IMG/VR virus record: IMGVR_UViG_3300025466_000048 | Location: 1-53,455 of that record | Source of the DNA: a virus | Lineage: Duplodnaviria > Caudoviricetes | Direction: 5' to 3' (one strand) | DNA: 53,455 nucleotides | Part shown: one piece after another, positions 1,760-53,406 of the stretch | Position numbering within the stretch: position 1 is the stretch's first letter | Layout: every line of letters begins with the position of its first letter | Translations under genes and position numbers: made by a program | The notes under the pieces: generated by a model | What the model was told of the DNA's origin: nothing | The model's database searches: none | What the model saw: only the letters and a program-made list of their open reading frames with translations

Positions 1760-1775
1760 GTGGCAACAACTCCAC
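1760..1775 (+). repeat. dispersed 16-bp site GTGGCAACAACTCCAC (perfect, intergenic)
   Basis: Direct read; immediately after the stop of 1487..1759. Confidence 0.95.
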
Positions 1776-4658: not shown

Positions 4659-4916
4659 ATGGCAACCGCAACAAAAAAAGTGGCAACAACTCCACCCAAG
4701 AAGGCAGTGGCAACAACTCCAAAAAAAGAGAAGGTGGTAACGTTACCAGAGAAGATGTATTCCATGCCTGAAGAGGTTAAGGAATGGATAGACCAAGCCA
4801 TGAGTCGAATGAGGCACATGCAAGGAGAAATCTCGCGCCTCAAGGAAGAGAACGCACAACTCAAAGCCTATAGGAAGTTCGCAGAGCATAGAATCTTGAG
4901 AAGCGAAGCAGAATAA
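4659..4916 (+). CDS. hypothetical coiled-coil protein with Lys-rich N-tail
   Basis: GAGG RBS before ATG 4659; N-tail encoded by two 16-bp sites. Confidence 0.7.
   Translation: MATATKKVATTPPKKAVATTPKKEKVVTLPEKMYSMPEEVKEWIDQAMSRMRHMQGEISRLKEENAQLKAYRKFAEHRILRSEAE
4680..4722 (+). repeat. two 16-bp sites (4680 perfect, 4707 15/16), starts 27 bp apart
   Basis: Direct read; both read as VATTP. Confidence 0.95.
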
Positions 4917-12178: not shown

Positions 12179-14664
12179 TGAGTAACCAAGACGATATGAA
12201 CATTGACGAGCAAGACGATGGTTCTGCTCTTGTTGACATGCCTGAGATGGAAACCGAAGAGCAAGAAGACGGCTCAGCGATTGTCACCATACCAAGCAGT
12301 GGCCCAGAAGAGAATCCAGACTTTTATGCAAACATGGCAGAAGACTATGACGAAGGTGAACTTCGTACTATTGCCATGCGCTACATGGACTTAGTCAAGA
12401 ATGACAAAGAAGCCCGTGAACTAAGAGATAAGCAATACGAAGAAGGATTAAAGCGTACTGGCATGGGGAATGATGCCCCTGGCGGTGCTACCTTCATGGG
12501 AGCGTCTAAGGTTGTGCACCCTGCGATGGCTGAGGGTTGCGTTGACTTCGCTGCTCGCGCCATCAAAGAGATGTTCCCACCAGATGGCCCTGTCAGGACT
12601 AAGATCCTTGGCAAAGTCGATGAAATGAAGACTCAGAAAGCTGAGCGTAAGCGTGACTATCTGAACTGGCAAATTACAGAGCAGATTGAAGAGTTCAGGG
12701 ATGAGCAAGAGCAGTTGCTGACTCAGTTGCCATTGGGTGGAAGCCAATACTTTAAGCTATGGTTTGATGAGGATAAGAAGCGCCCATGTGTGGAGTTTTT
12801 GCCAATTGATAGGGTGATACTACCGTTTGCAGCGACCAACTTCTATACAGCCCAACGAGCTGCAGAGGTGCATGAAATTACCCATTGGGAGTTTAACCGT
12901 CGCATTGCCAGTGGAATGTACCGTGATGTGAATGTTATCCAAGCGGTGTCTGAACCCGATCAAACTAAACCACAGAAAGCCAACGACAAGATTGAAGGTA
13001 AAAAGTGGGAGGACAACAAAGACGGATTGCGCAAGGTTTACCACATCTACACCTACCTTGAGTTGGAAGAGGACAAGTACAGCAAGGGCAAGATGGTTCC
13101 TTACATCCTGATGATTGACGAGCTAGACAACGAAGTTGTTGGCTTGTACAGGAACTGGGAAGAAGAAGATGAGACCATGACCAAGCTAGATTGGATTGTG
13201 GAGTTTAAGTTTATCCCTTGGAGGGGTGCATATGCGATTGGTCTCCCTCATCTCATTGGTGGATTGTCCGCTGCCCTCACTGGATCACTTAGAGCGCTTC
13301 TGGACTCTGCTCACATCAACAACGCAGCCACCATGCTCAAGCTCAAAGGGGCTAAGATTAGTGGCCAATCCCAACAGGTTGACATCACTCAAATTGTTGA
13401 AGTTGAGGGAGCACCTGGCGTATCAGACATCCGTCAGATAGCCATGCCCATGCCGTTCAATCCACCTAGCGAAGTGCTTTTTAGCCTTCTAGGATGGCTT
13501 GACACCGCAGCCAAGGGGGTAGTCAGTACCAGTGAAGAAAAGATCGCTGACGTCAATGCACAAGCCCCTGTGGGTACAACTCAGGCGTTGATTGAACAAG
13601 GTGCAGCGGTCTTCTCCGCCATCCACGCAAGGATGCACGAGTCACAAGCAAGGGTGCTAAAGATCCTTTGCAGACTGAATCGTTGGCACTTTGATGAGAT
13701 GCGCAAGTCTGAAGTTGTTGCCGACTTAGAAATTGAACGCGAAGACTTCTCACGCAATACAGACGTTGTTCCTGTATCAGATCCTCACATATTCTCAGAA
13801 ACTCAGAGAATGGCTCAGAACCAAGCTGTGTTGGCTTTGGCTGAAAAGCACCCAGACCAGTTCAACATGAGTCAAGTGTTGTCACGTTTCCTCAAGCAAT
13901 TGAAGGTGCCAAACGTGAATGAATTGATGAAAGATGTGCCAGCGCCTGAGCAGAGGACATCTGCGGATGAGAACGCAGCCATGTTGCTAGGACAGCCCTC
14001 ATACGCTTACATGCAACAAGACCATATTGCACACATCCAAGATCACTTGCAATTTGGATTGAATCCATTCTTTGGTCAGTCACCGTTTGCCGACCCCAAC
14101 TACATTAACAACTTGATTGAACACATCAAGCAACACATGACATTGTGGTACTTGAACCGCAGTAATGCATATGTGGCACAGTCGCAAGGTGGCAAGCCAA
14201 TCAACAACTATGATGATCCTAGCCTTACAGCGACCATAGACAAGCTATACACGACCGTTGGCGCACATGTGGAGTTGGATACCAAAGACGTGTTTAAAGC
14301 GTTTGTACCCGCCTTCCAACAGCTTATACAAGTGGCATCACAACGCGCCCAAGCAGCTCAGGGTAATCTACCCCCAGCAGAGCAAGTCGTTAAAGAGACA
14401 AGCATGGCTGAGACACAACGCAAGACACAAGCTGATCAAGCCAAGTCTCAGTATGAGCAAGCAAGGTTGAAAGCGGATATGCAAAAATCTCAGATGGACA
14501 ATCAAACAAAGATTGCCATTGAGAACGCCAAGCTAACGCATGAGACAATCCAAAACATAGCTCAGGCACAACCGCCTGAGATGCAACCGCCTATGGGACA
14601 ACCCATGGCACAACCACAGGCGCAACCGCCACAACCCCAAGGAGCCCCAAATGGCAACATCTGA
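12178..14664 (+). CDS. portal protein
   Basis: 828 aa; VVHPAMAE, LPLGGSQYFKLW, APVGTTQALIEQG, Q/P-rich tail; position after terminase. Confidence 0.85.
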   Translation: MSNQDDMNIDEQDDGSALVDMPEMETEEQEDGSAIVTIPSSGPEENPDFYANMAEDYDEGELRTIAMRYMDLVKNDKEARELRDKQYEEGLKRTGMGNDAPGGATFMGASKVVHPAMAEGCVDFAARAIKEMFPPDGPVRTKILGKVDEMKTQKAERKRDYLNWQITEQIEEFRDEQEQLLTQLPLGGSQYFKLWFDEDKKRPCVEFLPIDRVILPFAATNFYTAQRAAEVHEITHWEFNRRIASGMYRDVNVIQAVSEPDQTKPQKANDKIEGKKWEDNKDGLRKVYHIYTYLELEEDKYSKGKMVPYILMIDELDNEVVGLYRNWEEEDETMTKLDWIVEFKFIPWRGAYAIGLPHLIGGLSAALTGSLRALLDSAHINNAATMLKLKGAKISGQSQQVDITQIVEVEGAPGVSDIRQIAMPMPFNPPSEVLFSLLGWLDTAAKGVVSTSEEKIADVNAQAPVGTTQALIEQGAAVFSAIHARMHESQARVLKILCRLNRWHFDEMRKSEVVADLEIEREDFSRNTDVVPVSDPHIFSETQRMAQNQAVLALAEKHPDQFNMSQVLSRFLKQLKVPNVNELMKDVPAPEQRTSADENAAMLLGQPSYAYMQQDHIAHIQDHLQFGLNPFFGQSPFADPNYINNLIEHIKQHMTLWYLNRSNAYVAQSQGGKPINNYDDPSLTATIDKLYTTVGAHVELDTKDVFKAFVPAFQQLIQVASQRAQAAQGNLPPAEQVVKETSMAETQRKTQADQAKSQYEQARLKADMQKSQMDNQTKIAIENAKLTHETIQNIAQAQPPEMQPPMGQPMAQPQAQPPQPQGAPNGNI

Positions 14665-15506: not shown

Positions 15507-16505
15507 ATGGCAGAAGATAAAAAAACACCAGATTTAAAGATAGAAGAGGCGCAAGACGGCTCTGCTGTCGTTGAATTAGACGAAAACTTGCTCACAAATG
15601 ACGAAGATGATCAATTAAATGATGTGGCAACAACTCCACCTGAGAAAAAAGAAGGTGGAACGGTTGAAGATGAGGATGCAGACCATCCAGATGATGATCA
15701 AGCCCTCAGAGACGCCAAAAGAAACCGTCGTAGAGCTAAAAAAGACCTGATTCGCAAGACAAATGAGGAAAAAGACCTCCGTTTGCAACAACTCCAACGT
15801 GAAAACGAGGAGTTTAAGCGTCGTTTGACAGAGGTGGAGAGCAGAACACGCCAGTCAGACGTCATGCGGATCGACAAAAACATCGAGGACACCCAAGTTC
15901 GCTTGGAATACGCCAAGATGAAGATGGCTGAGGCGGTAAGTTCCAATGATGGACAAGCCATGGTGGAGGCTCAAGACCTTTTAGATGAGGCAAAAGCCAA
16001 CCTAAGCCAACTCAATCAAATAAAAAGACAGGCAACACAAGCCCCACAACAACAAAATCTTGACAACATCAGGTTGCCTGACCCAGAGACGCAGAGAAAC
16101 GCTGCTCAATGGATCAATAAGCACAGTTGGTACAAGGTAGACGGCACAGATAGGGACAGTAAAGTCACTTTGAAGGCGTCTGAAATGCTAGTTGAAGAGG
16201 GTTGGGATCCAAAAGATCCAGATTATTGGGATGAACTCGATAGTCGCTTGCAAAAATCTCTCCCACATCGTTATAATGAAACCACAGACAGTAATTCCAC
16301 TGTTCGAAGACCGAGGAATGTTGTGGGAAGTTCAGGACGCGAGGCATCTGCAGCTTATGGGGGTACAAACCGTACCCAGTTCATCCTCACCCCAGAAAGA
16401 GTGAGTGCTATGAAGGAAGCTGGTGCATGGGAGAACCCTGTGCGCAAAGCGAAGATGATTGAAAATTTCATCAAGTTTGACCGTCAGAATAAAAACCGTA
16501 ACTAA
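15507..16505 (+). CDS. capsid scaffolding protein (putative)
   Basis: Acidic N-terminus, long coiled coil, position before capsid genes. Confidence 0.7.
   Translation: MAEDKKTPDLKIEEAQDGSAVVELDENLLTNDEDDQLNDVATTPPEKKEGGTVEDEDADHPDDDQALRDAKRNRRRAKKDLIRKTNEEKDLRLQQLQRENEEFKRRLTEVESRTRQSDVMRIDKNIEDTQVRLEYAKMKMAEAVSSNDGQAMVEAQDLLDEAKANLSQLNQIKRQATQAPQQQNLDNIRLPDPETQRNAAQWINKHSWYKVDGTDRDSKVTLKASEMLVEEGWDPKDPDYWDELDSRLQKSLPHRYNETTDSNSTVRRPRNVVGSSGREASAAYGGTNRTQFILTPERVSAMKEAGAWENPVRKAKMIENFIKFDRQNKNRN
15624..15639 (+). repeat. 16-bp site (perfect)
   Basis: Direct read; in the acidic linker of the scaffold. Confidence 0.95.
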
Positions 16506-18662: not shown

Positions 18663-18691
18663 GGGGTGGAGTTGTTTCCACCCCTTTTTTT
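18663..18691 (+). terminator. intrinsic terminator containing a reverse 15/16 copy of the 16-bp site
   Basis: GGGGTGGA-GTTGTT-TCCACCCC + T7. Confidence 0.85.
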
Positions 18692-22034: not shown

Positions 22035-22220
22035 ATGCCTTTAACTAAATCTAAATCCAAAAAAGCTTTTGAGCACAACATTGAAGCTGAGATTCACGCA
22101 GGCAAGCCCCAGAAGCAGGCAGTGGCGATTGCCTACAGTGTAAAAAGACACGCTAAAAAGGCTCATGGTGGTAACGTTTCCACTCATCATGAGAATTCAA
22201 AACACAAAGGATGTTGGTAA
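22035..22220 (+). CDS. small basic protein
   Basis: [13 protein letters not shown] motif; KAHGG. Confidence 0.7.
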
Positions 22221-22621: not shown

Positions 22622-23695
22622 ATGGCCTATAGCGGTACAGTCGGTCAAACGGTCATAACCGTACAAAACTTTATTGACCAAGGCGCTCGCTTGTCGGGCA
22701 AACTGGCGGAAGAGTTGACGAGTGAGCAAGTTCAGGGTTCCAAACAAGCCTTGTTCTTTGTCCTTAGCAACCTGATCAATCAAGGCATTAACTATTGGGC
22801 TATCAATAAACAGGTTTATGGCCTTATTCCAGACCAGTACGAGTATTTGCTACCCGTAGGCGGTGTTGACGTCTTAAATGCGCTCTATCGCACGATGAAC
22901 CGCCCTAGCGGATCGTATTCATCAAGTTCTGGTGGAGTTGTTGCCAATATCTATGATGGAAATACCCAAACATATTGCCAACAATCGTCAGCAAATGGTA
23001 ATTTCACAGTCGATTTTGGTACAAATAACTCAATCTACATTGGCTCGATTGGCTTTATGCCATACGTTGCTAATAATGGTTCTGCAACTTGGAGCTATAA
23101 CTTCCAATATTCATATGATGGAACGACTTGGACGACGTTATATACAGCTAACAACGTAACTGTGTATGACGGACAGTGGATATGGCAAGACATTGACCCT
23201 GGGGCGACCGCAGAGTTTTACCGTTTTCAAGCAACAGGTGGTACAACTTTAGCGTTGCGTGAATGGTACCTTGGCAACAACTCCACTGAAGTCACGATGG
23301 CTCGATTGAACCGTGATGACTATACCAATCTGCCTAACAAGAATTTCACAGCCAATCAGCCTTATCAGTATTGGTTCAACAGGACAATTCCACAGGCAAC
23401 GATCACGTTATGGCCTGCCCCCTCTAATGCTTTTGTACAAATGACCATATGGTATTCACGTCAAATTGATGATGTTGGATCGCTGAATGGACAGTTGGAG
23501 ATTCCTCAGAGATGGAATCAAGCTATTCAATACTTACTAGCTCACCAGATGAGCTTGATCCTCCCTGCGGTTGATATTGCAAGAATTCAATACTTGGAAA
23601 CACAAGCCAATAATTACTTCATTATGGCTGAGAACGAAGAGCGAGACCGTTCGCCAATATATTTTTCGCCGAACATTTTGCCGTACACAAGGTAA
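22622..23695 (+). CDS. head-tail adaptor-like protein with inserted beta-sandwich domain
   Basis: NQGINYW, LNRDDYTNLPNK..PYQYWF, ITLWPAP; contains 16-bp sites at 22932(-) and 23271(+). Confidence 0.6.
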   Translation: MAYSGTVGQTVITVQNFIDQGARLSGKLAEELTSEQVQGSKQALFFVLSNLINQGINYWAINKQVYGLIPDQYEYLLPVGGVDVLNALYRTMNRPSGSYSSSSGGVVANIYDGNTQTYCQQSSANGNFTVDFGTNNSIYIGSIGFMPYVANNGSATWSYNFQYSYDGTTWTTLYTANNVTVYDGQWIWQDIDPGATAEFYRFQATGGTTLALREWYLGNNSTEVTMARLNRDDYTNLPNKNFTANQPYQYWFNRTIPQATITLWPAPSNAFVQMTIWYSRQIDDVGSLNGQLEIPQRWNQAIQYLLAHQMSLILPAVDIARIQYLETQANNYFIMAENEERDRSPIYFSPNILPYTR

Positions 23696-27987: not shown

Positions 27988-28146
27988 ATGGACAAAGTAA
28001 CTTTATCAACCACACTCGTGAATAACATCATGGCTTACCTTGGAACACGCCCATTCCAAGAAGTGTTCCAATTGATTGATGCTGTGCAAAAAGAAGCTCA
28101 GGCACAAACTTCTGTGGCAACAACTCCACCTGAAACCAATGTCTGA
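27988..28146 (+). CDS. small hypothetical protein, 52 aa (not in ORF track)
   Basis: AAGGA RBS; YLGTRPFQEVFQLI; tail encoded by a perfect 16-bp site at 28114..28129. Confidence 0.7.
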   Translation: MDKVTLSTTLVNNIMAYLGTRPFQEVFQLIDAVQKEAQAQTSVATTPPETNV

Positions 28147-29341: not shown

Positions 29342-29786
29342 ACAACTTGAAGCCGAGACAAAAGCGTTTATTTTAAAAACGTTCTGTTTTATTCTTGTGC
29401 TTGTGACGGTGCTATTTTCATATAGCATTGTTTTTAATGAACAACCATTGTTTGTTGAAGCGCCTGCTGACAAGGCAATTTTGGCTATTTTGTCTTCAAT
29501 CATGGTGCAGATATTCACCGTGGTCAGTTTGGTGCTTACAGGCAAGTCTAGCGTGCCTCCAACTCCTCCGATGCCTTTTAATCCTTGTATGGGTCAACCT
29601 ATGATGGGGCAAATGGGATATGGATCACCTATGCAATTTCAAAGTGGCAACAACTCCACTTCAGGATTCAGCATTGATCCTACCCAAGCTTGGACACCTC
29701 CTCCTCCGCCCACAACTCCACCGACTTTAGAACATGAGGAAGAGCGAGAGCGTATGGCAAATGCAAGGGCTAGTGTAAATGCTTGA
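29322..29786 (+). CDS. two-TM membrane protein with Pro-rich tail (holin candidate)
   Basis: Two hydrophobic helices; perfect 16-bp site at 29644..29659. Confidence 0.6.
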   Translation: MAHKTPEQLEAETKAFILKTFCFILVLVTVLFSYSIVFNEQPLFVEAPADKAILAILSSIMVQIFTVVSLVLTGKSSVPPTPPMPFNPCMGQPMMGQMGYGSPMQFQSGNNSTSGFSIDPTQAWTPPPPPTTPPTLEHEEERERMANARASVNA

Positions 29787-31613: not shown

Positions 31614-32843
31614 ATGACCTACTATGTAAACCCCTATACAGGTTCCACGATCAGCCCATCTCAGGTTGGTTATGAGAGCCTCACAATCAGTGCTAACACC
31701 ACGCTTCAGTGGCCAGTCAACGGAAACACAAGTGGAGTTGTTGCCAACATTATTGAAGTGACAGCCACAACGACTGGCCTAAAGTTGATTTTGCCCACTG
31801 CGACTCAAGTCTCTACAGGGCAGTCATTTTTAATTAAAAACATAGCAACCAATCCTTTTACGGTCTATGAAAATGACACCACGACTAGCCTGATCACCAT
31901 CAATTCAGGAATCTCTTACTACATTTACTTGACCAACAACACCACTACAAATGGTTCTTGGTCGGTTTTACAGTTTGGCGCTAGTACATCATCAGCTAAC
32001 GCATCAAGCTTGGCAGGTTATGGAATAAGCGCGACAAATACAACGCTCAACACAATCACACCGATTGTGAGCTATTACAGTAACATCACTTTACCAAACA
32101 GTGCTCAGTCCCAAATTTCATCATGGACTGGTGGAGTTGGCACCATTACTTTACCGACATCAACAAGCGCAACAGCAAGTTGGTACACCATTGTCAAGAA
32201 CAACGGAACAGGTATATTGACAATTGCTTGCCAAGGCGCAGATGTCATTGATGGCGGTACAAGCTCATTCCAACTCCAAGTTGGAGAATCTTTGTATTTG
32301 ATCTCTAATGGCTCAACAGGATATACGTCTTGGGGTTATGGTCAAAGTTCAGTATTCTTTTTCACACAAGAACAGATTTCGGTTACAGGTGCAGGTGCAA
32401 CAATTACTTTGACGAGTACGCAAGCATCCTATACTTTACAGAACTACACTGGAACATTGGGTCAAAACACAAATGTTATTGTTCCTCCGACTGTTCAGTT
32501 TTACATTATCACTAACAGCACATCGGGTGCTTTTACACTAACATTTAAGACAAGTGTTGGTGGGGGCGCTACAGTAGCAGTTCCATCTGGAACAACTGTA
32601 GGATTAATTTGTGATGGCACAAACGTTACTGCGATCTCGACTGTAACCAATAGCGCAAACAATTTAACGCTTCAAGTGGGATCGGCATCTAATCCATCGT
32701 TGAACTTCTTGAGTAATTTAACGACTGGTCTTTACGTACCAAGCTCCAACACGATTGGATTTGCATCAAATGGAACACAAGCCGCGACACTTGGCCCATC
32801 AGGACTTTATGTTGCTAATGGTATTAGTGGGGGTTCATTTTGA
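31614..32843 (+). CDS. tail structural protein
   Basis: Beta-rich T/S/G composition; 16-bp site (-) at 31732. Confidence 0.6.
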
Positions 32844-35352: not shown

Positions 35353-38300
35353 TGGCAGATGATACAGGTTTAGTTAATAGTTGGTTCGCAGCTAACCCGA
35401 ACGCTACACAGGCGGATGCGGCGGCTGCGGTGCAAGCCTATGGTGGACTGACACCTGACTTGGCACAAGCCTTGGCTACTCACTATGGCACTTCGGCTGA
35501 CAACGTCAACACTGCATATCAGCAGTTGACTGCGCCCACTCCAACTCCTACTCCAACTCCCGTTCCTGCGCCTACTCCAGTCCCAACGCCTACACCGACT
35601 TCATCACCACTGGCAACACCAACTTATACACAGTACACACCAGATCAAATACAAAACTATTTGACCTCAAACCCTGGTGTCAATGTTGCGTTGGCTGAAC
35701 AAAAAACAAATGCAGATCCAAACGCAGTTGCCTCTGTAATCGCTGGGATGGCAACAACTCCAAATAATCCATTGGCATCAATTGTCCAAGGAAATATAAA
35801 GCCAACATATACCAATACAGAGATAGCGGCTGATGCGAATGCTATCTTGAATAGTGGTGGAACTTATGCTGACGTTGCAAAAGAGCTAGATGCAAAGGGT
35901 GTGACGCCCACGCAGTTGGCCACGGCATTGAATATAAACCCTGCTTACGTACAGAATCAGTACAACATAGCTGATCCTACAGGCTCACAAGTCAAGGCTT
36001 ATTCGGGTGATAAGGCACCATCGACCGCATCAGACACAAGTAATAACTTCAACACAACATACAACGCGCTTCAATATGGAAATACAAAAGTTGTTCAAAC
36101 TGGAGCAGATGAATCAGGCGCTCCAACGTATGGCCTTCAAGATGCCAACGGCAACATATTGCCTGGCACTCCTATTGATATGGGGAATGGCGTCTATGAC
36201 GTTCAAGTTGGCTCTGCTGGTGGAATCATTCACACATATACAACTCTTAGTTCTGATGGGACATTAAATCCTGTTACCGACTACAGTACACAAGTTGACT
36301 ACACGGGTGGAAACAAGGGTGGATTTGTAAATCAAGTGGCATCAGGTATTTCTGCTTTATCGCCTGTGCTTGGCCCAGCCTCAGCTATCCTAGCCCCAGA
36401 GCTTCCATTGTTGGGAACTGTGCTTTCTGGTGCTAACACTGTCAATGCTATCAACAACAACAATCCATTGGGTGCTCTTTTGGGTGGAGTTAACACCGCC
36501 CTATCATTGAATGGAACTGGGCCTGTAACAGATAAATCTCCTTTAGATCAAGGAACTGTTGATTTATTAAAGAATGCACAGACTGGTCTAACCATAGCCA
36601 ATGCTATTAAAACAAATAATCCATTGGCTCTTGCTAGTACGGTATCTAAAGCTTTGGGGATCAATACTGACCCATTGGTTGCGAATGCACTCACAGGTGC
36701 AAGTCTTGCTCTTGCAATATCCAAGAATGACATGAATGGAATGATGTCCGCAGCGATGTCATTGGCAAAGAGCAACAACCCAACAATTGCATCATCTGCG
36801 CAAAAAGTTATTGATACAGCCAACAATGGTGGTGATGTTACGCAAGCTGCGAGTGACATGACTCAATACGTTGACAAGGCACAAAAATACTATGACTACG
36901 CAATTAGTCAAGGCAAGTCAGATGCTGAAGCCACCATGTTTGTGAACGCTACATTGGGCGGTGGTGGCGGTGGATCAATGGTGAATACCATGCTAGATTT
37001 GGGAACCGTTGGTGGATATCCAAACGGTATGCCAATAGTTCCACCTGCAACCTTGGGCTCATCAGGCGTTGGGACATCTGCTAATGTAAATAGTGGAGGA
37101 ACCAATGCACCTTCATACATACCATTAGACAAGTTAGATGTTGGTAATCCTTTGGTTACCAACGCAACCAATGCAATCAATAATGCAATAGATACTAATG
37201 GAGTTCCTGAAGGCACTGATTTGAGTGGCGGAACTTACGTTAAAAGTGAAAATGATCCTGATACTGGTGAAACAGTATTCAGTGTCCAAAAGCCTGTTTC
37301 GTTCACAAATGCAGATGGTCAGTCTACAGGATACACAATCATGTATGAGCCTGTTTCAGGCAAGACCATGTATGTGTATCAGCAATATAACAACCAAACG
37401 GGTAATTGGACTATTGCGCAAAGTGCGCAACCACCTACATTCAACGATCAATCACAGCAATTTGACAACATCAAGCCATTGGACATACCTCCAGAGGCAA
37501 AAGACAGTACATCAAAAACTGACACAACAACTGAGTCTCCTTTAGTCAATGCGGGTGTAACGGATAACACCAAAAATGATGTCAACTCAAAAGTCAACTC
37601 ACCCTTAGTTGATAATAAACCAACCTCAAATGACGTTAATCCTGATCTTGTGAGCCCATTGGCAACACAAACAGGGCCAAATAGCACATCTAAAGTTCCA
37701 AGCAATATATCTGGGCCATTTCCCTTGGGAGGTTCGCCAGTAGGCGCGATAGCCAATACTAATGGCACAAGTCCAAGTGGAGTTGTTGCCAATGTATCTC
37801 CAAATTACAATAATTTTGGTGTTCCATCAGGTGTGCCCACTGGTACTCCTTCTGGTACGCCTTCAGGCACTCCATCAGGAACACCTTCAGGAACGCCTTC
37901 GGGAACTCCTACACCTACATCTACACCTACATCTACACCAACACCGACTTCTACTCCTAGTTCCACACCTAGCTCATCTCCATTGAGTACACCTACAAAA
38001 ACAACCACAACCACTACAGGTGGTGGTTCATCCAACACATCATTGCCTATGGTTGCTACCATGTTGGCAGGGGCGCCCGTCTATGGTGATCAAGCACATC
38101 TACAGAAGTTAAAACAACTGTACGATAGCCTTGACCCTGGGCTTGCACAGCTTTTAGCCAAAGAAGGCATCAAAGCGCCTGAAGTGGCAAAACAGCAAGA
38201 ACAATCTGACCAACCTACTGCTGAGCAATTGGCTGAAATCAATAAAGAGATCAAGTCAGAACAACCCCCAGTGGCTGAACAAATGTTGATGGCAGACGGT

Positions 38301-44553: not shown

Positions 44554-45195
44554 CTAAAACGGAATATCCGAGTCCACATCTTCATCAATACTTGCAACAG
44601 ATGAAGTGGAGTTGTTGCCACCCTTGGCTTTATTGAACTCAGGGGAAGCAATGATTTTTTGCTTCAAGTTGTCGCTGAATGTCTCAAACATATCCCAGTT
44701 GGGGTTGTCGAGGTTGAACATCTCGATCTTATTGACGCCTTCAGGAAGACCTGCCTTCTTCATCATGGATGGGACTGGCGTCACGGTGTCAATGTTGACG
44801 TAGGTTTTGCCGTCCTTGCCTGGTCGCTCAATCACGTTCAGCAAGCACCAAGCGCCAAGGACTGTTTCCAAGTCAAAGCGACGCATTTCCTCTTGGGTGA
44901 ATGGCTTACCCCTCCATGACTGTAGATCAAGCCTTAGATTGGCTTTCTCGCTCCACGATAGGGTGTAGTTCTTGAACATTGCAAAGGGACGACCATCACG
45001 CATTTTGAGCGTTGTGCCATCCTCTTTGGTGGTGTGGATTTCCCATCCAAGCATGATCTTGTGTAGGAACTTGACTTGACCCATGTACTCAGACTTCTGA
45101 GTGCCTAGATCAACGATTCGGTAGCACCGTGCGAGGTGCATACCAGGTGGACATGATTCAAATGCTCCACCAGATTCTTCAACGTAAAAAGCCAT
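44554..45195 (-). CDS. single-stranded DNA-binding protein (putative)
   Basis: ARCYRIVDLGTQ; acidic tail ending DIPF; perfect 16-bp site at 44606..44621. Confidence 0.75.
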   Translation of the reverse strand: MAFYVEESGGAFESCPPGMHLARCYRIVDLGTQKSEYMGQVKFLHKIMLGWEIHTTKEDGTTLKMRDGRPFAMFKNYTLSWSEKANLRLDLQSWRGKPFTQEEMRRFDLETVLGAWCLLNVIERPGKDGKTYVNIDTVTPVPSMMKKAGLPEGVNKIEMFNLDNPNWDMFETFSDNLKQKIIASPEFNKAKGGNNSTSSVASIDEDVDSDIPF

Positions 45196-45242
45196 AACAT
45201 TCTCCAATAACGAGATAACACGTTCAAATCGAACGCAGACGA

Positions 45243-45466: not shown

Positions 45467-45667
45467 ATGACATTGGAGGAATATTTTAAAGACGAGCCAA
45501 GGGGGGCTAAAGCTGAGATGGCTGAGTATTTGGGCATCTCCCCTACATGGCTTGGGCAAATACTTAGTGGGGTGAGGAAGGCATCTCCTAAGCTTGCAAT
45601 AGCGATTGAGAAGGCGACACAAGGCTTGGTCACACGCAAAGACATGCGACCAGACTTGTATCTCTAA
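45467..45667 (+). CDS. Cro/YdaS-like HTH regulator
   Basis: KAEMAEYLGISPTWLGQI..G.RK.SP.LA..IE.AT.G.V....RPD. Confidence 0.88.
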   Translation: MTLEEYFKDEPRGAKAEMAEYLGISPTWLGQILSGVRKASPKLAIAIEKATQGLVTRKDMRPDLYL

Positions 45668-45775: not shown

Positions 45776-46369
45776 ATGAAAATTTGTTCTACATGCAAGG
45801 CATCAAAGCCTTTTGAAGAGTTCTATATAAATAAAAGAACTCTTGATGGTTATTGCTATCAATGCAAAAAATGCCAAATTATTTATAACAAAAAATGGAT
45901 TGAAAAAAATCCAGAAAAAAAACAAATATATAAAGAAAAAGATATTTCAAGATTTAATGCTTGGAGCAAAAAATGGCGTGCTGAAAATCCTGAAAAAATT
46001 AAAGAGAGAGATGCAAAATATTATAAAAAAAATTCAGAAAAAATTAAAGAAAAAAAACAAATATATAGAAAAGAAAATCCTGAAATTATTTCTGTTGCAA
46101 GACACCGTTATAGAGCATTAAAACGTAATGCAAGTGGTTCTTATAACAAAGAAGACATTCAATTTTTGTTTATTGCGCAACGTGGTCTTTGTGCCATGTG
46201 TCAGGTAGACATTAAAAAACAAAAACATCATGTAGATCACATCATGCCATTAGCGCGTCAAGGAACAAATGATAAAACAAATTTGCAATTACTTTGCCCA
46301 ACATGCAATCGCAAAAAAAGTGCAAAACACCCCATAGACTTTGCCCAACAAATGGGCTTTCTTTTATAA
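45776..46369 (+). CDS. HNH endonuclease (free-standing, homing-like)
   Basis: N-terminal CxxC...CxxC; CAMC...HVDHIMPL..G.N...NLQLLCPTCNRKK; markedly AT-rich. Confidence 0.92.
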   Translation: MKICSTCKASKPFEEFYINKRTLDGYCYQCKKCQIIYNKKWIEKNPEKKQIYKEKDISRFNAWSKKWRAENPEKIKERDAKYYKKNSEKIKEKKQIYRKENPEIISVARHRYRALKRNASGSYNKEDIQFLFIAQRGLCAMCQVDIKKQKHHVDHIMPLARQGTNDKTNLQLLCPTCNRKKSAKHPIDFAQQMGFLL

Positions 46370-46383: not shown

Positions 46384-47181
46384 ATGGCAATAAGAATGGT
46401 AAATTTGAAAGACATACGGATTGATGGAGGCACACAATTCCGTGAAGCAATTGATCAAGACTTGGTCAAAGAGTACAAAGAAGACATGCTCGGTGGAGAC
46501 GTTTTTCCTCTGATAGACTGCACATTTGATGGTTCAACTTATTGGTTGGCTCGTGGGTTTCACCGATACTTTGCCATGCAAGCTTTAGGGCTGAAACAAG
46601 TGGAGATCAACTATAAGCCTGGTACTCAAGAGGATGCCCAAGACTGGGCTTTGGGGGACAACGCTGAACATGGCTTGCGTCGCAGTCCAAAGACCAAGCG
46701 CAATCAAGTGGAGTCTGCTCTGTCCATGGAACGCCATAAGGACAAGTCTGACCGTGAAATAGCAAAACTCTGTAAGGTAAGCCACACCTTTGTGGCGTCT
46801 ATGAGAAATCCCAAGGTCAAAGAACGCCAAGCAGAAAACCAGAAAAAACACAAGGAAAGTGGCAACAACTCCACTCCTGTTGAGACTGGCAACAACTCCA
46901 CTTATGTGGAAAAACCATCCATGACTCAAGACTTTGCGCCCTCTGCGGAGGAGCTTGAGGCGAATCAATTGATGATTCAGCGCGACATGGAGGTCATGAA
47001 TAAGATTCTAGAATCTGATGATGTGATTGCTACCCTACACGCTGAAGTCAAGAGGTTAAGCGATGACAATGCAAGCTTACAGAGCCGAGTCAATGCTTTG
47101 ATGAGAGAAAAGAACAAAGCTGTGGAGTTGTTACAGAAAGCCCAACGTGAATTAGACAAACTCAAGAAAGCCAAAAAATGA
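46384..47181 (+). CDS. ParB-like protein (ParB/Srx N-domain + HTH + coiled coil)
   Basis: GGAG RBS; TQFR, FP.I, GFHRYFA, N..HG; HTH SDREIAKLCKVSHTFVASMR; C-terminal heptads. Confidence 0.8.
   Translation: MAIRMVNLKDIRIDGGTQFREAIDQDLVKEYKEDMLGGDVFPLIDCTFDGSTYWLARGFHRYFAMQALGLKQVEINYKPGTQEDAQDWALGDNAEHGLRRSPKTKRNQVESALSMERHKDKSDREIAKLCKVSHTFVASMRNPKVKERQAENQKKHKESGNNSTPVETGNNSTYVEKPSMTQDFAPSAEELEANQLMIQRDMEVMNKILESDDVIATLHAEVKRLSDDNASLQSRVNALMREKNKAVELLQKAQRELDKLKKAKK
46859..46901 (+). repeat. two 16-bp sites (46859 perfect, 46886 15/16) inside the ParB-like gene, starts 27 bp apart
   Basis: Direct read; both read as GNNST. Confidence 0.95.
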
Positions 47182-47360
47182 ACAAAATTGGTGCAATTCT
47201 TTTTTTATTTAAATGCACGTTTATTGTTGCTTTAAGAATGATTAAAGGCTTAACGTGGAACATTATTATGGTTGATCTTGAAGAAAAAAACGGAACACGA
47301 ACACAATTAACTTTTAAACGTGGTATGAAAGACTACCACTTACATGAATGGAATAGATAA
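47178..47360 (+). CDS. small hypothetical protein
   Basis: Coupled at both ends; AT-rich. Confidence 0.5.
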   Translation: MNKIGAILFLFKCTFIVALRMIKGLTWNIIMVDLEEKNGTRTQLTFKRGMKDYHLHEWNR

Positions 47361-49705
47361 TGAACCAAGTCCTAGCTCCAAGTGAGAGTGATGATGGAAC
47401 AACCTTCCCACCACCAAGACCCTTCCAAACTCAAGCCCATGAAGCACTTCGCCAAGGGTTTAAGAATGGCCACAAGAACCAAGTGATCATGGCTCCTACG
47501 GGGGCTGGGAAGACCTACCTCGGCATGCGCATCTGCAACGAAGCCATGCAAAAGGGGAAACGTGCAGTCTTCCTTTGTGATCGAACTACCCTGATTGATC
47601 AAACCTCCGATGTGGCTGAGAAATATGGCCTCAAAGATCATGGCATTATCCAAGCCAACCATTGGAGGCGTGATCCAGATCAACTCCTACAGATCGCTTC
47701 AGTTCAGACCATCGCCAAGCGTCAGTTCTGGCCAAAGATGGATGTCCTCGTGGTGGATGAGTGCTTCCCCGGCGACACATTGATTTCAACCCCTTACGGG
47801 CCAAAAGAGATACGCACACTGCATAGTGGTGGACTCATATATAATGCAATGGGCGTTGGCCGAATTGATTCCATTTTTTCCAAGCCAGCATCATCAATTT
47901 GCACTGTGAGGTTGTCCGATGGAACAAAGTTTGAATGCACGCCAGACCATCCAATATTTACCAACGTGGGATGGCGACCCGCTGGCTTCTTGGAAGTCGG
48001 TACGAGGTTATTTCGCTTTCAAGACGTGTGCGGTTTGTACAAAATCCTTCACACCAAAAATGGTGAAAGGCTACAACGGGAAACCAATGCCGCAACTAGA
48101 ATCGAACTTCAGTCAACAGAAATGCTGTGGGAAATCTTGTGCGAAGAAGTTGAAGAACCCGATGCACTCCGAAGAATCGCGCCTGAAGATGCAGAAAACA
48201 TTGAAGGCAATAAAGCATGGGCCAAAGGTACGTGGAGGCAATGGTACTGGTCTAACAAGACCACAAAGCATGGCGGTACAAGCGTTAGGCTCCCAGTGGC
48301 TTACGGAGGTCGTTATTTGCACTATGAAGTCCTCGAAGCAGGGTTATCCGCATCATTACAAAGTGGATGTGGCGAACAAGGAACTGATGATTGCAATCGA
48401 GTTGGATGGCCAGAGTCATGGCTCCTTGAAGCGCCAGTCACAGGACAGAAAAAAGGATTCTTTGCTTCGCAGCCTTGGGTGGAAAGTGTTGAGGTTGAAG
48501 AACGAGGAAGCGATGAACTTGTTTACAACCTACGGGTCTCAGGCCATCCATCATATTTTGCAAATGGCGTGCTAGTTCACAACTGCCATACCATGTACAA
48601 GGCGTGGACTGACTATGCGGTGCAAACGGGGGCTGCGGTCATTGGTCTGTCAGCAACTCCATTCTCTACTGGGATGGGAAAGATCTTCTCAAACCTCATT
48701 AACGCCACCACAATGCACGATTTGACGGTGTCAGGGGTGTTGGTACCCATGAGGATATTTTCTTGCACCAAGCCCGATATGAAGGGCGCTGAGACCGCTG
48801 GTGGGGAGTGGACAGACAAGGCGGCCGAAGAACGTGGCATGAAGATCGTGGGGGACGTGGTCACCGAATGGAGGCGTTTTGCTGAGAATCGGAAGACGAT
48901 TGTCTTTGGGGCTACGATTGCTCACTGTAAAGAGTTGGCTAAGCAGTTCATTGACCAAGGCGTGATGGCTGCTGTCTTTACCTCTGAGACCACTAAGGCT
49001 GAGCGCAAGATGCTCTTGGATGAGTATAGAAAGAATGATAGTGTTCTCAAGATTTTGATCAGCGTGGAAGCCTTAGCCAAGGGATTTGACGTGCCCGACG
49101 TAGGCTGTGTGTGTGATGCACGACCATTGAGGAAGTCATTGTCCACCGCAATCCAGATGTGGGGGCGTGGGCTGAGGTCGGCACCCAACAAGGAGGACTG
49201 TTACCTCTTAGACTTCAGTGGCAACATCATCCGCTTTGCTGAGGACTATTCGGATATTTACTTCAACGGTCTTGACGCCTTAGACGATGGCGAGAAGCTT
49301 GACAAGAAGATCAGAAAGGACGAAGACTACGAGTTGAAGGGTTGCCCTCGGTGTGGATATAAACCCTTTGCCAAGCGTTGTATGGGCTGTGGGTACGAGA
49401 AGATCAGCCAAGCAATCACGGAAACGTTGCCAGGTCACATGCAAGAGATCTTTATCGGTGAGGGGAAGAATAAGAAAAAGCTCGCGGACAACGCTCAGCA
49501 CTTGTGGCATCAAGTGGTAACCTATGCCAAGTTCCATAGTAAGCCTGAGACCCAAAAGGGTAGGGCATATCACTTGTACAAAAAGATCACTGGTCAAGAT
49601 CCTATGTGGCAATTTTCCTCAGCACCACAGGTTGAGATATCTAGAAATGTTGTGAACAAAATCACACAATTGAACATGGCCTGGCGTAAGGGGATGCAAA
49701 AATGA
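47360..49705 (+). CDS. SF2 DExH helicase (RadD/YejH-like) with intein
   Basis: APTGAGKT, DE|CH, GLSATP, KGFDVP, QMWGRGLR, CPRC..CMGC. Confidence 0.92.
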   Translation: MNQVLAPSESDDGTTFPPPRPFQTQAHEALRQGFKNGHKNQVIMAPTGAGKTYLGMRICNEAMQKGKRAVFLCDRTTLIDQTSDVAEKYGLKDHGIIQANHWRRDPDQLLQIASVQTIAKRQFWPKMDVLVVDECFPGDTLISTPYGPKEIRTLHSGGLIYNAMGVGRIDSIFSKPASSICTVRLSDGTKFECTPDHPIFTNVGWRPAGFLEVGTRLFRFQDVCGLYKILHTKNGERLQRETNAATRIELQSTEMLWEILCEEVEEPDALRRIAPEDAENIEGNKAWAKGTWRQWYWSNKTTKHGGTSVRLPVAYGGRYLHYEVLEAGLSASLQSGCGEQGTDDCNRVGWPESWLLEAPVTGQKKGFFASQPWVESVEVEERGSDELVYNLRVSGHPSYFANGVLVHNCHTMYKAWTDYAVQTGAAVIGLSATPFSTGMGKIFSNLINATTMHDLTVSGVLVPMRIFSCTKPDMKGAETAGGEWTDKAAEERGMKIVGDVVTEWRRFAENRKTIVFGATIAHCKELAKQFIDQGVMAAVFTSETTKAERKMLLDEYRKNDSVLKILISVEALAKGFDVPDVGCVCDARPLRKSLSTAIQMWGRGLRSAPNKEDCYLLDFSGNIIRFAEDYSDIYFNGLDALDDGEKLDKKIRKDEDYELKGCPRCGYKPFAKRCMGCGYEKISQAITETLPGHMQEIFIGEGKNKKKLADNAQHLWHQVVTYAKFHSKPETQKGRAYHLYKKITGQDPMWQFSSAPQVEISRNVVNKITQLNMAWRKGMQK
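47762..48583 (+). mobile_element. intein, 274 aa, in helicase Walker B
   Basis: Starts CFPGDT, block B CTPDHPIF, ends VYNLRV..HPSYFANGVLVHN, +1 Cys; splicing restores DECH. Confidence 0.93.
47919..48575 (+). CDS. Vsr/DUF559-like endonuclease overprinted in the +1 frame of the intein
   Basis: GAGG 7 nt before ATG; CAVC...CGKSC; KVDVA...IAIELDGQSH...DRKKD..L...GWKVLR. Confidence 0.82.
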   Translation: MEQSLNARQTIQYLPTWDGDPLASWKSVRGYFAFKTCAVCTKSFTPKMVKGYNGKPMPQLESNFSQQKCCGKSCAKKLKNPMHSEESRLKMQKTLKAIKHGPKVRGGNGTGLTRPQSMAVQALGSQWLTEVVICTMKSSKQGYPHHYKVDVANKELMIAIELDGQSHGSLKRQSQDRKKDSLLRSLGWKVLRLKNEEAMNLFTTYGSQAIHHILQMAC

Positions 49706-50577
49706 GCTTCATAGACTTTGCACGAGCCCATGGGGTGGAGGTCGATCCATCCCGTTTATACCCTTCCGACAAGATCAAACGCTGCGGTACCGTGGATAAG
49801 CCTAAGAGTGGCAACGGTGCTTACTTCTGGGACGGTCAGCGCGGATGGGTCTTTGACTGGTCAGGAGAGGCTAGGACGATCTGGTACGAGGATCCCCATG
49901 CCAAACCATGGACAGATCAAGAAAAGCGCCAATGGGCTTTAAAACGCCAAGTGGCGAATTCAGAGAAGGATCGAGCCTATGAGTTGGCGTCTGAAAAGGC
50001 TGACATCATTCTAAAAAGGGCTGACCTCAAAGAGCATGGTTACCTCGTAATCAAAGGCTTTCCAGAAGAGCTAGGCTTAGTCTCTGAAGATCGTCTTTTA
50101 ATCCCCATGAGGAACGTGGTCACGAATAAACTCCAAGGCTATCAGTCAATCTGGTGGAACATGGAGGAGAGGAAGTACGAGAAGAAAATGCTTTTAGGCA
50201 TGAGGGCTAAGAATGCAGTCCACCGACTAGGCTCTAAAACAGCGTCAGAGACGTGGTTGGTCGAAGGATATGCCACAGGCTTGTCCGTGTACCATGCGCT
50301 TCGTAGCATCGGTTCTGATGCGTCTGTGGTGGTTTGCTTTTCGGCATCCAATCTGGTTCAGGTTGCCGATCAGATCAAGGGGCAACGTTTTGTCTTTGCT
50401 GACAACGATGAGAGCAAGACAGGCGAGAAGTCTGCGGAGCAAACAGGACTCCCTTGGACGATGGCAGATACTGTTGGATTTGATGCCAATGATCTACACG
50501 TTAAGAGTGGATTGTTTGCTGTTGTTGGAAAAATTATGCAATTACGTAGAAAGGTGTTGACAAGCGTTGGTGCTTGA
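49702..50577 (+). CDS. Toprim-domain DNA primase
   Basis: LLIPMR, EGYATG, FADND, DAND. Confidence 0.85.
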   Translation: MSFIDFARAHGVEVDPSRLYPSDKIKRCGTVDKPKSGNGAYFWDGQRGWVFDWSGEARTIWYEDPHAKPWTDQEKRQWALKRQVANSEKDRAYELASEKADIILKRADLKEHGYLVIKGFPEELGLVSEDRLLIPMRNVVTNKLQGYQSIWWNMEERKYEKKMLLGMRAKNAVHRLGSKTASETWLVEGYATGLSVYHALRSIGSDASVVVCFSASNLVQVADQIKGQRFVFADNDESKTGEKSAEQTGLPWTMADTVGFDANDLHVKSGLFAVVGKIMQLRRKVLTSVGA

Positions 50578-51046: not shown

Positions 51047-51511
51047 ATGAAATACAGGTTAACGTACTCGGTGATGGATGCAATGATGGCGAGCCCTGAC
51101 CATCCGATGAAGGCTCAAAGGCGTGACTATCAGATGATGATCATTAGGACTTCCTTGGCGTCGATTGAACGCGCGGAGAATCCAACGACTGATGATTGGA
51201 AGATCATTTCTCAGGCGATCAACATGATGGAGATGTTAGTCGAGATGGGGTTTGCGAAAGATGAAGATGGCTTGATCAAAGATGCGATAGATGCCATGGC
51301 GAGTTCTGCGCAAAGATACAAAGACAAGAAGGTGATGAGATTCTCTGGCAACGAAATGAAAGTTATACGTGGAATCATTGACGACTATCAGACGATGATA
51401 GAGAACTTAGATGAGCGAACCATGATCCACTGCCACCGTAAGACGGAAATGCGCTTACAAGAGATTCTAAGTGGCAAGAAACGCCCAACTGATGTGAGGA
51501 TACCAGCATGA
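51047..51511 (+). CDS. hypothetical protein
   Basis: TAAGGAG RBS; upstream TTGACT...TGnTAGACT promoter-like sequence. Confidence 0.75.
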   Translation: MKYRLTYSVMDAMMASPDHPMKAQRRDYQMMIIRTSLASIERAENPTTDDWKIISQAINMMEMLVEMGFAKDEDGLIKDAIDAMASSAQRYKDKKVMRFSGNEMKVIRGIIDDYQTMIENLDERTMIHCHRKTEMRLQEILSGKKRPTDVRIPA

Positions 51512-51792
51512 CTAAAGAAGAAATCATTGAGATGGCGCACAAGTCAGGTCTTCATTTGGCAACTGATGTGAACTGGATGCCAATCATTGGGCTTGAGTAT
51601 CTTGAGAAATTTTCCAAACTGGTAGCAGAAAAAGCAGTTGAAGAAGCAAACCATATTATTTTTAAAAGTTGCATCAATCAACCACATTGGAAAAGATCAG
51701 CAATGCGTTATTTAAAACGCAATGCGCCAATGTTGCATCACCAAGCTGTACATGAATTTAACGAACATCCTGATGGAAGGGGACAAGAATGA
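51508..51792 (+). CDS. hypothetical protein (MTKEEIIEMA family)
   Basis: Paralogous N-terminus; coupled. Confidence 0.65.
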   Translation: MTKEEIIEMAHKSGLHLATDVNWMPIIGLEYLEKFSKLVAEKAVEEANHIIFKSCINQPHWKRSAMRYLKRNAPMLHHQAVHEFNEHPDGRGQE

Positions 51793-51974
51793 AAACCAAA
51801 GAAGAAATTAAAGAAGAAATCATTGAGTTGTATGGTGCGAACAAAGCGTTAGGTGAAGTGTCAACTCGTTTGCACCAACAACAGATAGAAATTACAAAGA
51901 GACTATACGCTTTAAACCATATGTTGGGAGCAATGAAAGAAGGGGAAAAAGATGAATCACGAAAAAACATTTGA
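51789..51974 (+). CDS. hypothetical protein
   Basis: ATGA coupling. Confidence 0.6.
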   Translation: MKTKEEIKEEIIELYGANKALGEVSTRLHQQQIEITKRLYALNHMLGAMKEGEKDESRKNI

Positions 51975-52311
51975 AGCAATCAACAAACTCAAAGAAATAG
52001 AGATTGAATTGCATCGTTTGAAGAACGCTTTGGAAATGACCAACAGAGCACTAGAAACAAAAGATGAGCCTGTGGGATGGATAGACAGTAAAGGCTACAT
52101 GATTTGTGTAAAGACAGATGAATCTTGCAGACCTCTCTACACCACACCACAACGCACATGGGTAGGACTGACTGAAGATGAAATTCATGAGTGTTTTGAG
52201 GAATGTTGCAATCTTAAAGTTGTTGACCCGAAAGGCGGTGTTAGAGGAAGCGTAAACATTTTTGATGTGGGTATGGCAATTGAAGCCAAGCTGAAGGAGA
52301 AAAACACATGA
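51952..52311 (+). CDS. hypothetical protein (EPVGW..PLYT + WVGLT module)
   Basis: Shares C-terminal module with 1..252 and 249..446. Confidence 0.7.
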   Translation: MNHEKTFEAINKLKEIEIELHRLKNALEMTNRALETKDEPVGWIDSKGYMICVKTDESCRPLYTTPQRTWVGLTEDEIHECFEECCNLKVVDPKGGVRGSVNIFDVGMAIEAKLKEKNT

Positions 52312-53236: not shown

Positions 53237-53406
53237 CTAACACAGAAACTAAAATTACTTTTTACAAACCTCCTGAACCAGTTGGTTATTGGTGTTTGTA
53301 TGGTGGTGGGCCTACAACAAAATTTGCTATGTTTCAAAAGCCAACTGATGAACAAATCAAAAACACAACTGAATTGTTGGGATGGATTTGGGAGGATGCG
53401 AAATGA
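53233..53406 (+). CDS. hypothetical protein, 57 aa (not in ORF track)
   Basis: ATGA coupling at both ends; PEPVGYW...LLGWIWED. Confidence 0.6.
   Translation: MTNTETKITFYKPPEPVGYWCLYGGGPTTKFAMFQKPTDEQIKNTTELLGWIWEDAK

Follow-up and report, generated by a model that had tools for sequence, protein, structure and literature searches.

Does the ParB-like protein of a lytic-looking freshwater phage read a 16-bp sequence that is scattered over the same genome and occurs twice within its own gene, and, if so, to what end? The question is raised by IMG/VR virus record IMGVR_UViG_3300025466_000048 (Caudoviricetes), the whole of which (53,455 bp, 97% complete, G+C content of 44.9%) was analysed and is referred to below as the window. 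The original prediction, made from the sequence of this stretch, had proposed an orphan ParB-like CTPase with a helix-turn-helix (HTH) domain that would load at the dispersed sites and coat or organise the phage genome. The best overall explanation of the data described below is that the protein is a ParA-less ParB-fold reader of dispersed sites of its own type, a reading to which we assign a probability of about 0.6.

The full motif, GTGGCAACAACTCCAC, is a 16-mer that we call motif A. A scan for TGGCAACAACTCCACT with up to 2 mismatches finds 18 matches in the window, against 0.07 expected and a maximum of 2 in 100 shuffled sequences. These matches are in mixed orientation (12 on the plus strand and 6 on the minus strand) and, together with 2 sites of a second type (B-type), they occupy 16 loci (Table 1). 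Two copies of motif A, 27 bp apart, are located in the ParB-like gene itself, in the linker that follows the HTH, just as had been noticed from the sequence; their codons give the peptide SGNNST..TGNNST, which lies in or beside a stretch that is predicted to be disordered. In other genes, the motif is read as GNNST, as VATTP, or falls on the non-coding strand (4 genes). As it appears in three frames and on both strands, what recurs is the DNA element rather than a peptide. A repeat at the peptide level is rejected on these grounds and also because synonymous variants occur in L221 (G and L numbers are our handles for related genomes and loci), which encodes the same GNNST peptide as the window with different codons (GTGGAAACAATTCCAC), and it is this codon variant that recurs in the flanks of L221. 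No conserved bases were found in the sequences that flank the 20 sites of both types. The spacing of the sites is mildly more even than random (coefficient of variation of 0.63 versus 0.92; P = 0.04), which is not used here as evidence.

The same arrangement is found in the relatives with other sequences. The family comprises 469 database proteins at E ≤ 1e-5, and 316 of the 336 candidate viral stretches were confirmed as belonging to it. In the best 120 proteins, the linker contains short lineage-specific words, often repeated two or three times, such as GNNST, GNVTT, VESDST, GVSST, RGLTA, VKLHP, and VVNYT. The DNA that encodes these words consists of 13- to 17-bp, mostly palindromic sequences that make up about ten site types. 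These include GTGGTAACGTTACCAC in G007 and G006, ACTAGTCWGACTAGT in MW202545, GTGGAGTCSGACTCCAC in G009, GTGGAATCSGATTCCAC in G011, CGGTTWAACCG in G012, GCGATTSAATCGC in G013, GTGGAATTSAATTCCAC in G014, and CCAGTTAAACTGG in L243 and L253, with further linker palindromes in several other relatives.

To relate the linker to the rest of the genome, we compared 15 whole or partial genomes that encode a homologue of 38 to 100% identity, taking residues ~146 to 177 as the linker. In 13 of these genomes, a linker 12-mer is present in at least 3 genome copies, and in 8 of the 15 no other 12-mer of the genome, low-complexity ones set aside, is repeated as often (n = 5 to 18). No recurring linker 12-mer was found in G008, which is an 18-kb fragment, or in G017, a provirus whose homologue is 38% identical. 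In a stricter test, restricted to ±10 kb around the gene and to a single locus from each of 48 clusters at 90% identity, the linker window, corresponding to 18% of the gene length, was found to hold 21 of the 49 recurring 13-mer segments (binomial p = 6e-5), and an inverted repeat is present in 13 of these 21.

The places of the sites are conserved even as their sequences are switched. When the sites of 12 genomes were mapped onto the window genes, the genome's own motif was found at most 70 bp from the end of terL in 10 of them (the exceptions being G010 and G018), often as a pair, at or just past the end of the homologue of open reading frame (ORF) 1487-1759 in 6, and 14 to 20 bp past the major head gene in 4. 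In G000, G007, G009, and G014, the motif behind the head gene, each time the genome's own, is part of a terminator-like hairpin with a T-run behind it, where it supplies the loop and the upper part of the stem. The site downstream of terL ends approximately 27 to 29 nt ahead of a conserved CATAAT in G000, G007, G013, and G014. A natural swap is provided by G007, in which many genes are 98 to 100% identical to those of the window. The ParB-like proteins of the two phages are 99% identical in the C-domain, but only 50% in the N-domain, 46% in the HTH, and 40% in the linker. The linker sites of G007 are of the B type, and so is the pair after terL, ~12.5 kb away, where the window has A-type sites. 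Judged from this comparison, the N-domain, the HTH, and the sites swap as one block, which bears out the earlier suggestion that the HTH and its site would move as one unit.

Whether the recognition helix, the intragenic site, and the dispersed motif change together across homologues had been named as a check on the original prediction, and they do. The respective table includes 40 distinct proteins that combine the HTH pattern C.VS-X1-X2-F/L-V with a linker palindrome; 35 of the 82 rows, mostly proteins of 31 to 36% identity, have a non-fitting HTH and were left out. In this table, X1, the first residue of the recognition helix (after C.VS) and His134 in the window protein, was compared with the fifth base from the dyad centre. 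His in the X1 position goes with G in 14 of 16 cases, and the two exceptions, the window and L277, are doubtful site calls. The automatically selected site of the window is an incidental TCCACTTATGTGGA, so the window was re-scored by its recurrent motif and L277 was dropped; after these two changes, which leave 39 rows, "X1 = His" and "base = G" agree in 39 of 39. Asp goes with C in 10 of 10 cases, Glu with C (3) or T (3), Gly with C (1), Val with T (2), Gln with T (2) or A (1), and Ser with T (1). These pairings agree with the common amino acid-to-base contacts. On a tree built from the N- and C-domains only, with the HTH and the linker excluded, each of the two traits changes 6 times, and the independent pairs on supported branches point in the same direction in 4 of 4 cases. 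Given the excess of sites, their copies in the linker, their conserved places, and the tracking of the site base by X1, the ParB-like protein very probably reads these sites. It would probably do so through the HTH, as a dimer that is held together by the C-terminal helices.

The assignment of this protein to the ParB fold comes from several sources. In PHROGs, residues 3 to 167 match phrog_1033, "ParB-like partition protein" (E = 9.8e-16). The AlphaFold2 model, with 62 relatives as the input, has a mean predicted local distance difference test score (pLDDT) of 83.8. The α/β N-domain and the helices through residue 162 are modeled with confidence, the N-domain and HTH being contained in residues 1 to 150; residues 162 to 178 are disordered (pLDDT < 50), and residues 188 to 264 form two long helices. 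Foldseek searches with this model retrieve, over ~140 residues that cover the N-domain and the HTH, the structures of Myxococcus and Bacillus ParB (7bnk and 6sdk), Noc (7ng0 and 7nfu), KorB (8qa9), and sulfiredoxin (Srx; 6ky4, template-modeling score by target [TMt] of 0.81), with E values from 2e-7 to 1e-4; the KorB match, which is among the best, has a score by query (TMq) of 0.41 and a root mean square deviation of 3.3 Å. The family profile matches plant Srx (E = 1.7e-7) and ParB (E = 1.1e-6). The protein belongs to the ParB/Srx fold superfamily, and the N-domain, HTH, and C-terminal helices of the original prediction are all present in the model.

Within this superfamily, the protein is not a typical ParB. 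In the alignments, the GFHRYFA motif (residues 58 to 64) is opposite GERRWRA of ParB and GCHRYEA of Srx, and DNAEH is opposite ENLQR. Box II therefore reads GFHRYF, which is Srx-like, instead of GERRxR, and box III reads (G)DNAEH instead of ENLQR, so that the minimal GxxR is kept and the canonical CTP-binding residues are not. This P-motif (G58-F-H-R61) is invariant across the 62 sequences. The residues that are invariant in the 62 relatives (D14, G15, T17, Q18, R20, G58 to F63, N93, and G97) all belong to boxes I to III, and H60, H96, and N93 are conserved across the family. Given these positions, a conserved pocket is likely. GxxR has been defined as the minimal P-motif, and the same source describes the choice of nucleotide in the ParB fold as one that sequence does not predict (PMC12704722). 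The protein begins at the first strand, MAIRMVNLKDIRIDGG, and lacks the ParA-binding N-terminal peptide LG(R/K)GL. Six-frame scans of the window with AAA_31 (ParA-type) and Phage_integrase (tyrosine integrase) gave no match, in line with the earlier remark that no ParA or integrase could be recognised; the CbiA/ParA model PF01656, other ParA models, and other recombinase models were not run. With no ParA, no ParA-binding peptide, and unconserved boxes II and III, this is not a canonical ParABS ParB.

These features suggest the following sequence of events. The ParB-like gene would be expressed together with the helicase-primase module, and its product, a dimeric ParB/Srx-fold HTH protein, would specifically recognise the 16-mer GTGGCAACAACTCCAC or, in the relatives, a lineage-specific 13- to 17-bp palindrome. 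Its targets would be the two sites in its own linker codons, the second pair right after terL, and about a dozen single sites at conserved places. It would nucleate at these dispersed cognate sites without ParA, in the manner of KorB, Noc, and BisD, and clamp closure, gated by nucleotide, might follow via the conserved GxxR pocket and the C-terminal dimer. This last step, nucleotide-gated closure and sliding as in ParB, KorB, and Noc, is drawn from analogy and is speculative.

As for the role of such a reader, our tentative preference is for one linked to replication (origin binding, helicase loading, or fork barriers), because of the conserved helicase-primase module, the sites in its own gene, as in lambda O and SPP1 gp38, and the distant second cluster, which resembles oriR. 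Control of transcription or of operon boundaries, suggested by the sites that follow stop codons, by the one in a terminator, and by the adjacent CATAAT in four genomes, is possible if doubtful. Genome organisation, protection, or self-marking appears rather unlikely, and any other role improbable. One form of self-marking, which we regard as a long shot, would be a genome "barcode": by loading only on DNA with its own allele-specific sites, the reader would limit replication, expression, or packaging to its own genome. Loading would take place at the linker of its own gene, after terL, and at module boundaries. Selection among co-infecting relatives would maintain the separate specificities, in a kind of kin discrimination or incompatibility among lytic phages, and the location of sites within the codons of the reader would keep the reader and the mark linked through recombination. 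The context for this idea is the existence of ~ten site types and of A and B types in genomes that are ~99% identical, with two loci ~12.5 kb apart switched together.

Could the protein instead initiate replication by binding an origin, like lambda O or SPP1 gp38? The origin would then be the intragenic pair, the neighbouring helicase and primase would be recruited by the protein, and the copies far away would serve, like SPP1 oriR, as additional origins or as barriers to the fork. The position of the gene upstream of helicase and primase, pointed out in the original prediction, is indeed a family trait: of 80 related loci, with identities as low as 31%, 77 have both genes downstream in the same orientation, and stop and start codons frequently overlap. 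The ParB-like gene is placed after a cro-like gene, and the intragenic sites are the most widespread feature of the system, G019 having these alone. For SPP1 gp38 itself, one binding region (oriL) is within gene 38 and the other (oriR) belongs to the late region (PMC6316719). The window, however, has no AT-rich unwinding element beside the linker sites (46902-47000), its 16 site loci far exceed the number of known origins, one of the sites forms part of a terminator hairpin, and no PHROGs or Pfam similarity to known initiators was found. We know of no ParB-fold initiator, and none was found in the literature searched. GC skew is uninformative with respect to the origin. A complex prediction for two copies of the C-domain (residues 180 to 265) and the intein-less helicase of L210 gave a score of 0.10 (mark, 0.32), values that do not speak to binding in either direction. 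Overall, we consider an initiator doubtful. The sites right after stop codons (terL and ORF 1487-1759) and in the head-gene terminator, seen in several lineages with their own motifs, and the CATAAT ~27 to 29 nt past the terL-side site in the four genomes named above would be accommodated by a global transcription regulator or roadblock, similar to KorB, BisD, or the stoperator repressors of Cluster A mycobacteriophages, that binds at operon boundaries and there halts, permits, or activates transcription of the late modules; the sites of stoperators likewise evolve together with the repressor and are found in syntenic positions (PMC6550527). This, too, is unlikely, since about two thirds of the window sites are intracoding and distant from gene starts, their mixed orientation is unlike that of stoperators, the 20 sites have no common flanking promoter element, and in W01, G012, G015, and G016 the terL-side site abuts the next ribosome-binding site and leaves no room for a promoter.

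A different reader of the motif, such as the Cro-like protein, the small terminase, or a host factor, was allowed for from the start, the linker then being merely tolerant of the motif. Other tolerant linkers and tails, in ORF 4527-4916 and at the C-terminus of ORF 44554-45207, also contain copies, a site array adjoins terL, and 2 of the 62 family members show a weak match to Terminase_4 (best E = 6e-4). Yet the linker, which accounts for ~0.25% of the genome, has a repeated word in 13 of 15 genomes, an HTH residue co-varies with a site base, and the N-domain, HTH, and sites are exchanged as one block, all of which makes another binder improbable. Still further from the evidence is a host-related or structural sequence, whether a DNA-uptake or Chi-like motif, an RNA hairpin or terminator element, or a recombination hotspot at mosaic boundaries. 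The palindromes could fold, one copy does belong to a terminator, and the terL array is flanked by variable genes; motif A, however, with arms of only 4 bp, is no hairpin, and close relatives of equal G+C content have different motifs. The exact 16-mer is found in 87 IMG/VR stretches, of which 52 are relatives of the window phage and the other 35, with no match to it, correspond to about the chance level by a rough estimate. Bacterial genome contigs yielded single matches only, among the at least 120 stretches listed, five metagenome-assembled genomes (MAGs) have 1 or 2 matches each, and, in the order to which a Burkholderiales MAG belongs, 11 of 401 genomes have one 14-mer match and none has more. 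An uptake or Chi-like motif of the host is rejected for the bacterial genomes searched (at most 2 copies, among the matches listed). A recombination hotspot is rejected as well, since of 35 homology breakpoints only one is found 40 bp or less from a site, and random placement gives 0.93 on average. These scans have already largely refuted this last alternative.

Returning to the ParA-less reader of dispersed sites, several observations weigh against it. The window protein has no match to Pfam ParB (PF02195/ParB_N) at E ≤ 0.01, and at this threshold only 16 of the 62 aligned relatives match ParB_N, with a best E of 8.8e-5; a precomputed PF02195 match is present in 49 of 120 homologues (the best 120 of 469). 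Of the canonical CTP- and Mg-binding residues in boxes II and III, R61 and N93 alone correspond and the rest are not conserved; the label "CTPase" is not supported by these boxes, of which only the minimal GxxR is kept. Motif A of the window is not palindromic, its symmetry being limited to GTGG/CCAC, which is odd for a symmetric dimer. The co-variation is confounded by descent, as the sign test on 4 pairs gives p = 0.125, with n too small for significance, and the window and L222 have the identical helix VSHTFVAS and different motifs. G007 retains 8 A-type sites beside its 7 B-type sites, and the window retains 2 B-type sites; given this coexistence of A and B in G000 and G007, site type and allele are not fully matched. 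Finally, the expectation of a dispersed motif in the genomes of homologues, which was borne out by the 13 of 15 genomes with a recurring linker word, failed for the distant homologues (32 to 37% identity, four genomes), which mostly have no dispersed copies, so that dispersal is not universal in the family. In G019 (32% identity), the site pair is intragenic only, and no linker or dispersed motif was found in G020 and G022, as in G017; in G021, a B-like motif is dispersed and its 2-mismatch variant is found in the linker. As a separate observation, the linker pair of G019 (the L260 contig, whole 63 kb) consists of GTGGATACGAATCCAC with no copy elsewhere, and another palindrome, GGCAACGTTGCC, is present 6 times outside the gene.

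Several known systems share parts of this arrangement. In the chromosomal ParB (Spo0J)-parS system, one parS lies inside spo0J and further copies are found nearby. The window system is similar in having a ParB N-domain followed by an HTH, 16-bp sites, a site inside its own gene, and several more copies, and differs in the lack of a ParA match or ParA-binding peptide, the unconserved boxes II and III, the long C-terminal helices, and the genome-wide distribution of sites in a lytic-looking phage. KorB-OB of plasmid RK2, Noc-NBS of Bacillus, and BisD of ICEclc are CTP clamps whose dispersed sites serve tasks other than partition (PMC11790492, PMC8429893, PMC12409273); VirB is a further ParA-independent regulator of this ParB-like group. 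Like these, the window phage combines a ParB-like protein with dispersed sites and no ParA match, for a presumably non-partition use; unlike KorB and Noc, it shows no KorA-like partner or membrane helix. To our knowledge, neither intragenic site pairs nor family-wide switching of specificity has been described for KorB, Noc, or BisD. The repressor of Cluster A mycobacteriophages has up to ~30 dispersed sites at syntenic places, with co-evolution of motif and protein (PMC6550527; PMC9283540). The genome-wide, co-evolving, syntenic sites are a shared feature, whereas that repressor, as described in these sources, has another fold, is monomeric, binds asymmetric 13-mers oriented with transcription, and serves lysogeny; the window system has palindromes in the relatives, mixed orientation, a ParB-like fold, and no integrase match. 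By analogy, the system would work like the site-loaded ParB, KorB, and Noc proteins and would be stoperator-like in its genome-wide co-evolving sites.

Lambda O has ori in its linker codons. Sites in the own gene, an adjacent helicase gene, and a second cluster far off are common to lambda O, SPP1 gp38, and the window protein, which differs from the other two in the lack of an AT-rich unwinding element, the much larger number of sites, a fold unrelated to theirs, and a helicase of the SF2 instead of the DnaB type. Cluster O mycobacteriophages have a ParB-like gene and a dispersed 17-bp palindrome, TGTTCGGNNNCCGAACA, in more than 30 copies, to which no binder has been assigned (PMC4351075). They resemble the window phage as non-temperate phages with a ParB-like domain protein, no ParA, and dispersed dyad-symmetric repeats; in the 24.8 kb of Corndog that were examined, 0 of 24 repeats are inside the ParB-like gene gp90. 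The phage ParB activators of thymine dioxygenases are orphan proteins with an N-domain and a C-terminal dimer that act on phage DNA together with a dioxygenase partner, and they are described as having no DNA-binding domain (PMC13229309). They are likewise ParB-fold phage proteins without ParA; the window protein differs from them in its HTH. No 2-oxoglutarate oxygenase was found among the window ORFs scanned, and one is annotated near the homologue in MW202545.

Non-partition ParB-fold proteins are a current topic, and few of their targets are known (PMC12704722). A phage ParB-fold family with sites in its own genes and switching specificities was not found described in the literature searched, which did not extend to supplements and subscription journals. 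Here the gene that encodes the protein itself reveals the DNA target, and with ~ten specificities and a visible residue-to-base correspondence the family offers a ready series for the evolution of ParB-type HTH specificity. It also provides a candidate ParA-less genome-marking system in lytic-looking phages and suggests a possible lead for unexplained dispersed palindromes, such as those in Cluster O phages.

Table 1. Motif sites and neighbouring genes in the window, in order of position
Feature	Position	Strand	Basis or remark
Motif A immediately past the stop codon of ORF 1487-1759	1760..1775	+	Place conserved in 6 of 12 genomes
Triplet at 27-bp steps in ORF 4527-4916: motif A (4680), motif A (4707), palindromic B-type GTGGTAACGTTACCAG (4734)	4680..4749	+	Same triplet in G007
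Tandem motif A, two copies (7105 and 7121), starting 2 nt past the terL stop codon	7105..7136	+	Own lineage motif here in 10 of 12 genomes
Promoter-like TTGAAC-17-CATAAT downstream of the terL-side pair	7142-7170	+	Sequence
Motif A with 2 mismatches, within the portal gene	12790..12805	-	Motif scan
Motif A in ORF 15507-16505	15624..15639	+	Motif scan
Motif A variant within the terminator-like hairpin that follows the major head gene (loop and upper part of the stem)	18666..18681	-	Hairpin scan
B-type near-palindrome GTGGTAACGTTTCCAC	22168..22183	.	Site mapping
Motif A, TTGG variant, in ORF 22622-23695	22932..22947	-	Motif scan
Motif A, TTGG variant, in ORF 22622-23695	23271..23286	+	Homologous place has own motif in G013, G012, and G016
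Motif A	28114..28129	+	Motif scan
Motif A in ORF 29205-29786	29644..29659	+	Motif scan
Motif A, TTGG variant	31732..31747	-	Motif scan
Motif A with 2 mismatches	35748..35763	+	Motif scan
Motif A, TTGG variant	37777..37792	-	Motif scan
Motif A in the C-terminal tail of ORF 44554-45207 (-)	44606..44621	-	Motif scan
Cro-like HTH gene, upstream	45467..45667	+	Pfam/PHROGs
HNH endonuclease gene between the cro-like and ParB-like genes	45776-46369		Pfam; absent at this place in MW202545 and G007
ParB-like gene, 265 aa	46384..47181	+	N-domain, residues 1-120; HTH, ~121-145; linker, ~146-185; C-terminal helices, 188-264
Intragenic site 1, exact motif A, linker residues ~159-164	46859..46874	+	Motif scan
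Intragenic site 2, motif A CTGG variant, 27 bp after site 1	46886..46901	+	Motif scan
SF2 helicase gene, intein-containing	47360..49705	+	Pfam/PHROGs
Toprim primase gene	49702..50577	+	Pfam/PHROGs

Two of the site loci in Table 1 deserve additional comment. The tandem 16-mer array after terL varies from 2 to 5 copies, with a period of 16, in the close relatives L011, L016, L050, and L054. The hairpin after the head gene (18663-18684), formed by GGGGTGGAGTTGTTTCCACCCC followed by a T-run, is the best intrinsic-terminator-like hairpin in the first 20 kb, and it contains the motif.

In the immediate neighbourhood of the ParB-like gene, the HNH gene is probably a mobile insertion, since it is missing in MW202545 and G007. 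A 60-codon ORF is located between the ParB-like gene and the SF2 helicase gene. The intein of the helicase is recognised by Pfam Intein_splicing (residues 169 to 408), and the helicase of the relatives is intein-less, with 507 aa; an out-of-frame ORF inside the intein region (47919-48575) matches DUF559 (Vsr-like endonuclease; E = 5.6e-11) and may represent a free-standing homing endonuclease. Genes are on the plus strand throughout the first 42.8 kb of the window, and the ORFs scanned also include those for a DNA methyltransferase, terL, portal, head, and tail fibre. The DNA methyltransferase gene (2450-3406; phrog_363, E = 2.3e-64) is a place where G007 differs from the window and has an extra B-type site. 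Small paralogous gene families with conserved starts (ATGACTAAAGAAGAAATCAT...) are found at both ends of the record (51508-53431; 135-446 and 52158-52311), and the ~8-kb region in which they are located has zero copies of the motif. The terL-side sites are followed by genes 7197-8519 and 8516-12178, the first of which encodes an ART-PolyVal ADP-ribosyltransferase domain (E = 1.1e-15). This gene is 35 to 47% identical between relatives whose neighbour genes are 95 to 100% identical, so this part of the genome appears to be a fast-swapping "polyvalent protein" region.

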